In this document: in pieces, positions 44,073 through 47,318 of the stretch
Position numbering within the stretch: position 1 is the stretch's first letter
Layout: every line of letters begins with the position of its first letter
Assembly: GCF_057098645.1 (NCBI RefSeq)
Contig: NZ_CM169472.1
Length of the DNA stretch: 64,000 bases
Strand: one strand, 5' to 3'
Notes under the pieces: model-generated
The model's input: only the letters and a program-made list of their open reading frames with translations
The model's database searches: none
Told to the model about the DNA's origin: nothing
Program-made: the position numbers and the translations under genes

Positions 44073-44901
44073 TTTTACCTCCCCTTTCGATTTCTCTTTG
44101 AGCGGTCCTTTTAATCCAGGACCGCCTCATTATGAAAACTATTTAATTCCCTCATCATTGATAAGGTTGGACATCTCTTTCAACATGAGAGTCATTGAAG
44201 CTTTCGACCAATTTAGCGGAATGATAGGGCTTGGCGCTTCATGCAAAGTTCCCGACTTGTGGATATAGTTATAGCTTTCGGGAAGTGCCATTTCTGGTAC
44301 GCTCCTGCCATTTGCACCAATCATATTCTCGCCTGTTATTTGGGCCAATGATCTATTCATAAATTGTACTGAGTCATTCAAATACTCTTCTTTTCTTGAT
44401 TCTTTATAAACAATTGCTGCTGATTTTGCATACCATGAGTCAAAAAACCATTCTGCTTCTGTTGATGGAATGAAGCTCTTTTCTCTTTTTGCATGCGAAT
44501 TTTGATCGGTATCGGTTTTAATATCATTGAACCAAAAATTTGCCGACTGATAATTATCCTTCTCGTATCTTTTTATACCATACGGACCTGCTAGTTTTTT
44601 AACTATTTTTAGAACTTGCTCTTTTCTTCTGGTGTTTATCTTTGAAAGATTTGCAGGATAAATAACATTAAGTAAAGCCGCATCGGCTTCTCTGTAATGT
44701 TTATCTTTTTCCAGATAACCTGGGGATTCTCCCCCTAAATCAAGCTGTAACGTTATTCTTTCATAACCTTTATCTATGAGGTGGTTCAACCTCGTTGTTG
44801 AAAGAGTTTCATCCAGTTCATTGACTTTAGCTTCGCGTAGTAAATCAGAGACAAAAACAGAGTCTTTCTTCGAGAGTAGGTTTGACAAACTGGATTTGCC
44901 C

Positions 44902-45807
44902 CTATATTTCCAGACATCTGTTATCACTTAACCCATTACAAGCCCGCTGCCGCAGATATTCCCGTGGCGAGCGATAACCCAGCGCACTATGCGGATGCCA
45001 TTCGTTATAATGCTCGAACGCCTCTGCAAGGTTCTTTGCTGCCGTTAACCCGTCTGGTTTGGGCATGATACTGATGTAGTCACGCTTTATCGTTTTCACG
45101 AAGCTCTCTGCTATTCCGTTACTCTCCGGACTCCGCACCGCCGTGTTCTTCGGTTCAAGTCCCAACATCCGGGCGAACTGGCGTGTTTCATTAGCCCGGT
45201 AGCATGAACCATTATCCGTCAGCCACTCCACTGGAGACGACGGAAGATCGTTGCCGAAGCGGCGTTCCACCGCTCCCAGCATGACGTCCTGTACTGTTTC
45301 ACTGTTGAAGCCGCCGGTAGTCACCGCCCAGTGCAGTGCCTCACGATCACAGCAGTCCAGCGCGAACGTGACACGCAGTCTCTCTCCGTTATCACAGCAG
45401 AACTCGAACCCGTCAGAGCACCATCGCTGATTGCTTTCTTTCACGGCCACTCTGCCTGTATGTGCCCGTTTCGATGGCGGTACAGCAGGTTTTCGCTCAA
45501 GCAACAGCGCATTCTGGCGCATGATCCGGTAAACACGTTTGGCATTGATCGCAGGCATACCATCAAGTTCTGCCTGTCTGCGAAGCAGCGCCCATACCCG
45601 ACGATAACCATACGTGGGCAGCTCTCCGATAACATGGTGTATACGGAGAAGCACATCCGTATCATCAGTGTGACGACTGCGGCGGCCATCCATCCAGTCA
45701 TCGGTTCGTCTGAGAATGACGTGCAACTGCGCACGCGACACCCGGAGACAACGGCTGACTAAGCTTACTCCCCATCCCCGGGCAATAAGGGCGCGTGCGC
45801 TATCCAC
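44902..45807 (-). CDS. insD: IS2 transposase OrfB (InsD), copy 2
   Basis: Track ORF identical in translation to 36865..37770. Confidence 0.95.
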
Positions 45808-46130
45808 TTTTTTGCCCGTCCATATTCAACGGCTTCTTTGAGGAGTTCATTTTCCATCGTTTTCTTGCCGAGCAGGCGCTGGAGTTCTTTAATCTGCTTC
45901 ATGGCGGCAGCAAGTTCAGAGGCAGGAACAACCTGTTCTCCGGCGGCCACAGCAGTAAGACTTCCTTCCTGGTATTGCTTACGCCAGAGAAATAACTGGC
46001 TGGCTGCTACACCATGTTGCCGGGCAACGAGGGAGACCGTCATCCCCGGTTCAAAGCTCTGCTGAACAATTGCGATCTTTTCCTGTGTGGTACGCCGTCT
46101 GCGTTTCTCCGGCCCTAAGACATCAATCAT
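45765..46130 (-). CDS. insC: IS2 transposase OrfA (InsC), copy 2
   Basis: Track ORF 45765..46175 identical in translation to copy 1 InsC. Confidence 0.95.
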
Positions 46131-47318
46131 CTGTTCTCCAATGACTAGTCTAAAAACTAGTATTAAGACTATCACTTATTTAAGTGATACTGGTTGTCTG
46201 GAGATTCAGGGGGCCAGTCTACAAACGTTCCAGTCCAGAGGTCACCAGTGCAACGGAAGATGTGTTTAATCGGGCATCTTCCTCCCACGCTCCGGAATCT
46301 TCCATAACATAGAAATTGGCTTTATCCAGATAAGCAATCAGCAGCGCAACCGATTTTAGTCGGTCACCTTTTTGCCAATCTTCAGCGTTAATAGTACCAG
46401 TATTGATTGCTTGTATAAGGAGATCAAGATAAAGACCTAACGCATCATTTTGTTTATGGTTCCACAGCTGCGGCTTGCCTTCTTCCTGCACATCTGCCAT
46501 CACGGGGGAGTTGCTGTCAAATCGGATATGCACAGCATTCATTTGCCCGGGAATACCATCCAGTCGTTTTGGGTTGCTAATGATGTCCTGCATCCGCTTA
46601 ATCTGGTCGGGCGTAGACATATAATCCCACAGGGTGAGCAGAACCTTTTTTGCGGCTACACTATTTCCCTGGTCTGATACTAATGCCATATAGCCCCATA
46701 AACTATCCCTCAGCCAGACAGCATCATAGTGGGTTTCTGCCGCTGTTTTGTCATCTTCGAAAGTAGAAGCAAGAATAAACGTTCCCCAGGGTTTCTCCGT
46801 CAACGTTAACTTTCGTGTGTTTTCTGTTAATGTTAGCAATCCTTGAATTTCGTCTTTGGTATAGTGGCTCTTTATTTCATTTTGTAATTTGGCTGAGTGA
46901 ATCAGAAGACGATAATTAGGATACTTATCTGGATTTAACGATAAATAACTTTTATCTGTTGCTGCCCCCGTGGAATTAAGAATGTTAAATACAGATTCAC
47001 TCGTCACTTCTGCCCCTGTCGCCTGGCATGTGCCGCACGAAAATATACCCGCGAGCAGAAGAGTTAATGCAGATTTCCCTTTCATAAAATATTCCATCAA
47101 TCGTTTATTAAAAGCGTAGATAACCACTTATTTAACAACTTGAAAATAAGGTATTTTACCTGGGTTGTTACAAAAGGATTGCATTGCGTAAACGCTTTTT
47201 ATTTACAAAAAAATGGGGAAGTGTTACAGCGATTGGGAAAAGTCTGAAGCGATTGAATTAAGATAATATAGAAAATCAGATACAGCAAAAATGGCAGATT
47301 GATGAGGTGAAGATAAAT

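Follow-up and report, generated by a model that had tools for sequence, protein, structure and literature searches.

The gene pkgA of Escherichia coli forms the edge of the ETT2 type III secretion island on the side of glyU, and both its homology to glucoamylases and phosphorylase kinase and its position at the end of the island were published between 2003 and 2014. The gene goes by the names ECs3736/ECs3737 in O157 Sakai and EC042_3075 in enteroaggregative E. coli (EAEC) 042. In a 2014 review of ETT2, ECs3736/pkgA is listed as 'phosphorylase kinase and glucoamylase' and as homologous to b2863 of K-12, and ECs3737 as homologous to b2862 (PMC3977695); the genome paper of EAEC 042 describes EC042_3075 as having 'homology to glucoamylases ... 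potential ETT2 effector' (PMC2808357), and in the passages that concern the homology of pkgA both papers cite Pallen 2003 (Protein Sci 12:1804). No experimental characterisation of ygeQ/pkgA was found in the full-text literature. Here we describe the pkgA locus in a 64,000-nucleotide stretch of contig NZ_CM169472.1 (RefSeq assembly GCF_057098645.1; hereafter the window), in which the gene is split by the insertion sequence IS2. The locus is a recent IS2 knock-out of a gene whose intact product is very probably a Sec-exported protein of glycoside hydrolase family 15 (GH15), most likely an exo-alpha-glucosidase with E268 as the acid and E491 as the putative base. An earlier note on this DNA, made from the sequence alone, regarded a secreted GH15 enzyme beside a type III secretion system (T3SS) island as unusual; the juxtaposition had already been published under the names pkgA and EC042_3075 (PMC2808357, PMC3977695), and the event in the window is the ordinary, already known IS2 pseudogenisation of an annotated gene.

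Reconstruction of pkgA and the IS2 insertion

In the list of open reading frames (ORFs) of the window, two minus-strand ORFs (46219-47127 and 44139-44927) lie on either side of two IS2 ORFs that overlap and encode 136 and 301 aa. Deletion of positions 44891-46226, that is, of IS2 and one copy of the CAAAC duplication, fuses ...VTSGLERL in frame with SNLLSKKDS..., as proposed in the earlier note, and produces a single ORF of 1611 nt (536 aa) that runs from ATG at 47085 to the stop codon at 44139-44141. The reconstructed DNA is 100.0% identical, over 1611/1611 nt in one piece, to the intact gene of more than 20 E. coli O145:H28 genomes, the kind of uninterrupted allele for which the note had recommended a search, and the encoded protein is annotated there as 'glycoside hydrolase family 15 protein' (RefSeq WP_000676915.1). 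Among 5426 complete E. coli genomes, 3986 contain at least part of pkgA, and in 2969 at least 80% of the gene is found in one place. The length of about 550 aa given in the note reflects the GTG at 47127, which indeed opens a long ORF and would start a 550-aa product; the RefSeq start of the intact gene is the ATG at 47085, which yields a canonical signal peptide and a protein of 536 aa.

That the ORFs on the two sides of IS2 are unrelated genes joined in frame by coincidence, the outcome that would have undone the reconstruction, has in its favour only the prior one-in-three chance of an in-frame join. This possibility is already refuted: the two fragments belong to one gene because the uninterrupted gene in O145:H28 spans the junction and is identical throughout, the gene is present largely in one piece in more than half of the complete genomes (see above), and the 5-bp target duplication is perfect.

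The element itself has the size, the inverted repeats, the orfA with an overlapping orfB and the 5-bp duplication that define IS2. Its terminal inverted repeats are imperfect (TGGATTTGCCCC... / ...GGGGGCCAGTCTA), and it is 99.7% identical (4 mismatches) to IS2H of K-12. A target duplication of 5 bp is typical of IS2; the duplicated CAAAC corresponds to nt 860-864 of pkgA, so that the insertion separates codon 288 (TTG, Leu) from codon 289 (TCA, Ser). The left end of the element reads TAGACTGGCC..., and its leading TAG terminates the N-terminal pkgA fragment, which bears out the earlier suggestion that the stop is supplied by IS2. The insertion junction is spanned by the sequence tag GGGGGCCAGTCTACAAACGTTCCAGTCC. 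The 3′ fragment of pkgA possesses neither a signal peptide nor a start codon of its own.

Two facts point to a recent insertion: no substitution distinguishes pkgA from the intact allele, and the IS2 copies of the window are 100% identical to each other. When both copies are removed, 9.9 kb of the window is colinear with O145:H28 strain RM9872 at 99.93% identity, and the right flank (12.8 kb) matches the O145:H28 lineage at 100% identity. By these alignments, the window is an O145:H28-like E. coli backbone that gained IS2 insertions, one of which recently inactivated pkgA at the edge of ETT2. The exact IS2/pkgA junction is absent from the 5426 complete E. coli genomes (with an 80-nt query, only two-piece, non-identical arrangements were recovered), and a 36-nt IS2/gene junction has no exact match in the GTDB representative genomes. 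Two draft assemblies, GCA_029361185.1 and GCA_029357705.1, carry this junction at contig ends, identical in every base, and draft genomes with contigs that end in IS2 also have the exact 288-aa product among their called proteins. The insertion may be useful for marking a lineage inside the O145:H28-like clade.

The features of the interrupted gene are collected in Table 1.

Table 1. The interrupted pkgA gene and its IS2, in window coordinates
Feature	Position	Strand	Remarks
pkgA 5′ part, codons 1-288	46222-47085	-	contains the upstream CAAAC copy; nt 1-864 of the intact O145:H28 gene
Signal-peptide coding part (MKGKSALTLLLAGIFSCGTCQA)	47020-47085	-	
CAAAC target duplication, copy at IS2 left end	46222-46226		
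TAG stop of the N-terminal fragment	46219-46221	-	first three bases of the IS2 left end
IS2 (IS3 family)	44891-46221	-	1331 bp; transposase genes co-directional with pkgA
IS2 orfA (insC)	45765-46130	-	ORF list; mapped from the K-12 insC4 annotation
IS2 orfB (insD), 301 aa	44902-45807	-	ORF list; agrees with the K-12 insD4 annotation
CAAAC target duplication, copy at IS2 right end	44886-44890		
pkgA 3′ part, codons 289-536 and stop	44139-44885	-	nt 865-1611 of the intact O145:H28 gene

The mechanically called ORF 44139-44927, which covers the 3′ half of pkgA, begins at a GTG within the right end of IS2 (44891-44927, minus strand). The resulting hybrid IS2-pkgA frame is co-directional with the transposase genes, and no exact hybrid product was present in the protein collection searched.

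The second IS2 copy (36451-37781, plus strand) has the opposite orientation to the copy in pkgA and its own target duplication, GAAAC (36446-36450 and 37782-37786). It interrupts the T3SS ATPase gene sctN/eivC, the remainder of which is the ORF 35239-36585. The target sites of the two copies share the ending AAAC. Inversion or recombination between the copies was considered and rejected, as each is flanked by its own matching 5-bp duplication (GAAAC and CAAAC, respectively).

Elsewhere in the island, the export-gate gene sctV/eivA (37899-39955, minus strand) is split into ORFs of 508 and 175 aa and is frameshifted in the O145:H28 reference annotation as well. ETT2 in the window ends at sctN, beside a yqeH-like LuxR gene (34300-34992), and shows the same large deletion as O145:H28. 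Ren et al. 2004 (cited in PMC2808357) claimed the 'widespread mutational attrition' of ETT2 in the title of their paper; the disruption of pkgA adds one more case of insertion sequence-mediated decay of the island, which matters little on its own.

The intact protein as a probable exported member of GH15

The assignment of intact PkgA to GH15 draws on its fold and on residue conservation. The protein contains an (alpha/alpha)6-barrel catalytic domain, and the highest comparison scores were obtained with GH15 enzymes and with phosphorylase kinase (PhK): 29.6 for the isomaltose glucohydrolase KfIGH (5z3a), 27.4 and 27.1 for PhK alpha and beta, respectively, 25.9 for dextran dextrinase, 24.5 for a bacterial glucoamylase (1lf6), 23.3 for the glucoamylase of A. 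niger and 22.7 for glucodextranase. The clan-related (alpha/alpha)6 families GH125, GH100 and GH116 gave lower scores than the GH15 and PhK entries. In the structural model, the predicted local distance difference test score (pLDDT) is below 50 for residues 1-23.

In an alignment of 53 homologues with 37-76% identity to the query, Y120, W124, R126, W208, Q212, D214, W267, E268, E269, R394, Y395, D398, Y400, E491, S492 and W514 are invariant, and at least 90% of the sequences have D127. A local alignment with the A. niger glucoamylase, the numbering of which was checked at 12 landmark residues, pairs W267-E268-E269 of PkgA with the general-acid motif W178-E179-E180, and Y120, W124, R126, D127, W208 and R394 with the -1 subsite residues Y48, W52, R54, D55, W120 and R305; the aligned positions of A. 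niger also include Q124/D126 and D309/Y311. The glucoamylase-like motifs announced in the earlier note are thus present, and the WEE acid motif and the -1 subsite residues are conserved across the 53 homologues. E268 further aligns with Glu185 of PhK alpha, one of the two catalytic glutamates named for that protein (PMC10978961). The RY..D..Y motif (with R394) and the putative catalytic base, E491, are encoded in the 3′ part of the gene. In the model, E491 (within LPESYN) opens a beta-hairpin that is followed by a helix starting with PLNW, an arrangement that resembles SEQYD...DLTW of A. niger, and the spacing between acid and base is 223 residues (E268-E491) compared with 221 in A. niger. Invariance, spacing and the order of secondary structure elements together point to E491 as the putative general base and the candidate counterpart of A. 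niger E400.

Several observations weigh against this assignment. The Pfam match to PF00723 (Glyco_hydro_15) is weak (independent E-value 3.2e-5, 23.5 bits, residues 94-413) and covers only positions 16-309 of the 427 in the model; among the 53 homologues, PF00723 is detected at E <= 1e-3 in 28 and at E <= 0.1 in 45. NCBIfam offers no usable family, the only trace being a match to TIGR01577 with 15 bits against a cut-off of 821. No tool alignment pairs E491 with A. niger E400, and literature searches revealed neither an enzymatic activity nor a characterised protein in the clade. Furthermore, the nearest solved relatives, the D1 domains of PhK alpha and beta, display no detectable activity on maltose, isomaltose or glycogen, although the alpha site is apparently intact (PMC10978961). 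The form of export is also in play, in that PkgA may be either a lipoprotein or a soluble periplasmic protein. Two further comparisons were set aside. Alignment of the family profile with the A. niger sequence by hhalign (probability 4%) placed R394 on R305 but gave an implausible base region and was not used for E491, and a phmmer search of PDB with the C-terminal 108 residues returned only noise.

Some of these observations would fit a different role, in which intact PkgA is a non-catalytic GH15-like protein that binds carbohydrate or serves as a scaffold in the manner of the PhK D1 domains. These domains are its closest solved relatives by sequence, PhK alpha and beta being the only entries detectable in a PDB sequence search, and the weak Pfam match is in keeping with such a role. 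Yet the two glutamates proposed for catalysis and all residues of the -1 subsite are strictly invariant in 53 homologues from many phyla, an invariance that is predicted by purifying selection on catalysis; PkgA is moreover a stand-alone, single-domain, exported protein rather than part of a multi-domain scaffold, and in some lineages its gene shows operon-like pairing with a sugar symporter. A purely binding or scaffolding function consequently strikes us as improbable. Inverting exo-alpha-glucosidase activity is the most likely prediction, and we conclude that the ancestral role of the family is probably carbohydrate hydrolysis.

The N-terminus of the protein, MKGKSALTLLLAGIFSCGTCQA, consists of a basic n-region and a hydrophobic core of about 11 residues, which agrees with the signal peptide reported in the earlier note. 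The signal may end either in a lipobox, IFS-C17, or at a signal peptidase I site, CQA|T (A22|T23). The former fits only a relaxed lipobox, with Phe at position -2 (lipobox [LVI][ASTVI][GAS]C). The E. albertii homologue has V-L-A-C17 at the same position, whereas Yersinia and other close homologues carry signal peptidase I-type sites instead, and the K-12 protein is annotated as 'putative lipoprotein YgeQ'. Signal peptides or lipoboxes are found in most homologues and are absent from a few Gram-positive ones. E. coli PkgA is predicted to be exported by Sec, probably as a lipoprotein with Cys17 as the anchor.

Under the preferred explanation, intact PkgA would be a single-domain GH15 (alpha/alpha)6 barrel, exported by Sec and probably lipid-anchored via Cys17. 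Most likely it would be an inverting exo-alpha-glucosidase, with E268 as acid and E491 as base, that cleaves an alpha-glucoside or alpha-glucan in the periplasm or on the cell surface. In the window, IS2 entered the gene after nt 864, with duplication of 5 bp, and its terminal TAG now ends a 288-aa product. This product retains the WEE acid E268 along with the signal peptide, regions 1-3 and the first half of the barrel but is devoid of barrel helices 7-12, R394 and E491. Judging from the model and the residue conservation, a product without half of the barrel, R394 and E491 cannot be a functional GH15 enzyme, and the enzyme is dead in the window.

The effector question and the genomic neighbourhood

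It has been speculated that PkgA is an ETT2 type III effector that is injected into the host and acts on host glycogen metabolism, because the protein resembles glucoamylases and PhK alpha and beta (PMC2808357, PMC3977695). The position of the gene lends this idea some appeal. It lies at the end of ETT2, adjoining homologues of invF and invG, and its low GC content (40.8%) is similar to that of the island (37%, against 49% for the window). In E. albertii, the layout is the same (GH15-like, OrtT-like and invF-like genes, then sctC and further genes), and more distant homologues also adjoin secretion genes: one with 65% identity lies next to prgH-prgI-prgJ-prgK-orgA and a SopD/pentapeptide gene, one with 58% identity next to invH and an OrtT-like gene, and yet another next to genes for an AraC regulator and a TPR_3 chaperone-like protein. 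The restriction of its PDB sequence matches to PhK alpha and beta likewise speaks for the idea.

Against injection stands, above all, the N-terminus. Sec and lipoprotein signals direct proteins to the periplasm and are not known from T3SS substrates. An effector would be expected to have an N-terminus free of a cleavable Sec signal; PkgA and all the T3SS-linked homologues carry a classical Sec signal or lipobox (an AXA or L-x-x-C site), with which the published idea clashes. The family is also widespread in Commensalibacter, Elusimicrobiota, Planctomycetota, Clostridiales, Bifidobacterium, cyanobacteria, Omnitrophota, Bdellovibrionales and Francisella, none of which is known to us to carry a T3SS of the type encoded by Salmonella pathogenicity island 1 (SPI-1). 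Sugar symporter genes accompany it in several lineages, no T3SS genes lie within 8 kb of the homologue in Yersinia enterocolitica, and no translocation data were found in the searchable literature. The effector idea is therefore very unlikely, whereas the linkage of the gene to T3SS islands as cargo in the Enterobacterales is real.

This linkage allows a further reading, in which the PkgA proteins of Enterobacterales are exported GH15-like cargo of SPI-1-type T3SS islands, often accompanied by an OrtT/GhoT-like protein, and serve secretion or host interaction by a route other than injection, such as the processing of periplasmic or surface glycans or holin-like release. We consider this a rather unlikely, tentative alternative; a holin-like release role for the OrtT-like gene is pure speculation. 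Should this reading be true, the substrate of PkgA could show what the silent active sites of the PhK D1 domains bind.

In the window, pkgA is followed after 66 bp, on its own strand, by the gene for a 59-aa small membrane 'toxin' of the GhoT/OrtT family (43893-44072, minus strand). The pairing is also found in E. albertii (locus L017) and, in reverse order, beside invH in another locus (L020, 3144-3317 and 4174-5799). The homologue with 65% identity (L019; Logan DRR526056 contig, 1-13659) lies between the prgH-prgI-prgJ-prgK-orgA operon on one side and ParA/SopB-type partition genes and the effector-like SopD/pentapeptide gene on the other, a layout that suggests a plasmid-borne SPI-1-type T3SS. 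Other homologues are found near pentapeptide genes, genes for DXD-glycosyltransferases and a HilA-like regulator.

Overall, the family is small: a set of 1.84 billion proteins yields 839 representatives at 50% identity (E <= 1e-3). An analysis of the neighbours of pkgA homologues in 42 distant loci revealed almost no conserved partners, the best being a generic ABC ATPase (8 loci). A gene similar to GPH sucrose/H+ symporters lies directly upstream of the homologue in 4 distant loci, and a TsgA-like MFS transporter gene is upstream in 4 loci of Francisella, Fangia and Thiotrichales. In Yersinia enterocolitica (L004, 3748-7440), the homologue adjoins two genes, for proteins of 848 and 326 aa, that are conserved in three contigs (L004-L006) and have no match in Pfam or NCBIfam. 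A 1360-aa protein (P0259) was examined as a possible bridge between the bacterial proteins and PhK and was rejected, as it is a fusion of a GH15-like domain to an M1 aminopeptidase and not a PhK subunit. The GH15 domain, at the N-terminus, resembles PkgA (E 3e-41) but has the putative base Glu replaced (CPGSYY), and the M1 aminopeptidase is complete; a fusion of gene models in a eukaryote or a genuine chimera may account for the protein.

Comparison with K-12 and with related proteins

In MG1655, the locus reads glyU, ygeQ (264 aa, the putative lipoprotein), ygeP (a pseudogene), IS2H and ygeO. Alignment with the intact allele indicates that ygeQ ends at a nonsense change, GGA to TGA, in codon 265, and that ygeP is the stretch after ygeQ up to nt 1137, where IS2H starts and the downstream part of the gene is missing. 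The DNA missing from K-12 comprises the last 474 nt of pkgA, the OrtT-like gene, invF, invG and more. IS2H has the same orientation as the copy described here, its TAG is in frame, and the annotation of ygeP overlaps IS2H by exactly those 3 nt.

The interrupted pkgA of the window and ygeQ (b2863) plus ygeP (b2862) of K-12 are accordingly one gene in one location, with glyU on one side and the OrtT-like and invF-like genes of ETT2 on the other, and in both strains the gene was hit by IS2 in the same orientation, with the terminal TAG of the element closing the frame. The details of the damage differ: here, IS2 follows nt 864, the target duplication is intact and nothing is deleted, whereas in K-12 there is a nonsense codon at position 265, IS2H follows nt 1137, and the 3′ end of pkgA is deleted together with adjacent ETT2 DNA. 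The lesions of K-12 are therefore independent of the insertion described here. The correspondence to ygeP and ygeQ surmised in the earlier note holds at the level of the gene but does not extend to the fragments, since the K-12 pieces, being products of different lesions, are not the two halves found in the window. The elements themselves are alike in length (1331 bp), orfA and orfB, imperfect inverted repeats and 5-bp duplication; they differ only in the insertion site. IS2 has struck the small pkgA region independently several times, namely in K-12 MG1655 (2997689-2998828), in E. coli TW14425, where it lies just beyond the OrtT-like gene, and in other strains, in which IS2 ends fall within approximately 150-420 bp of the insertion site reported here.

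Compared with the enzymes of GH15, such as glucoamylase, glucodextranase, KfIGH (5Z3A) and dextran dextrinase, PkgA is very divergent (12-16% identity) and has only about 90 residues before the barrel, in place of the large N-terminal beta-sandwich domain of the bacterial glucoamylases. Intact pkgA, which is available in O145:H28, EAEC 042 and many other strains, is a reasonable target for a substrate screen, given its linkage to T3SS genes and its kinship with PhK D1. PkgA is the closest bacterial relative of the D1 domains of PhK alpha and beta; in PhK (8JFK), D1 lies at the N-terminus of a eukaryotic regulatory subunit that is cytosolic and approximately 1100-1200 aa long, whereas PkgA is a stand-alone, exported bacterial protein.

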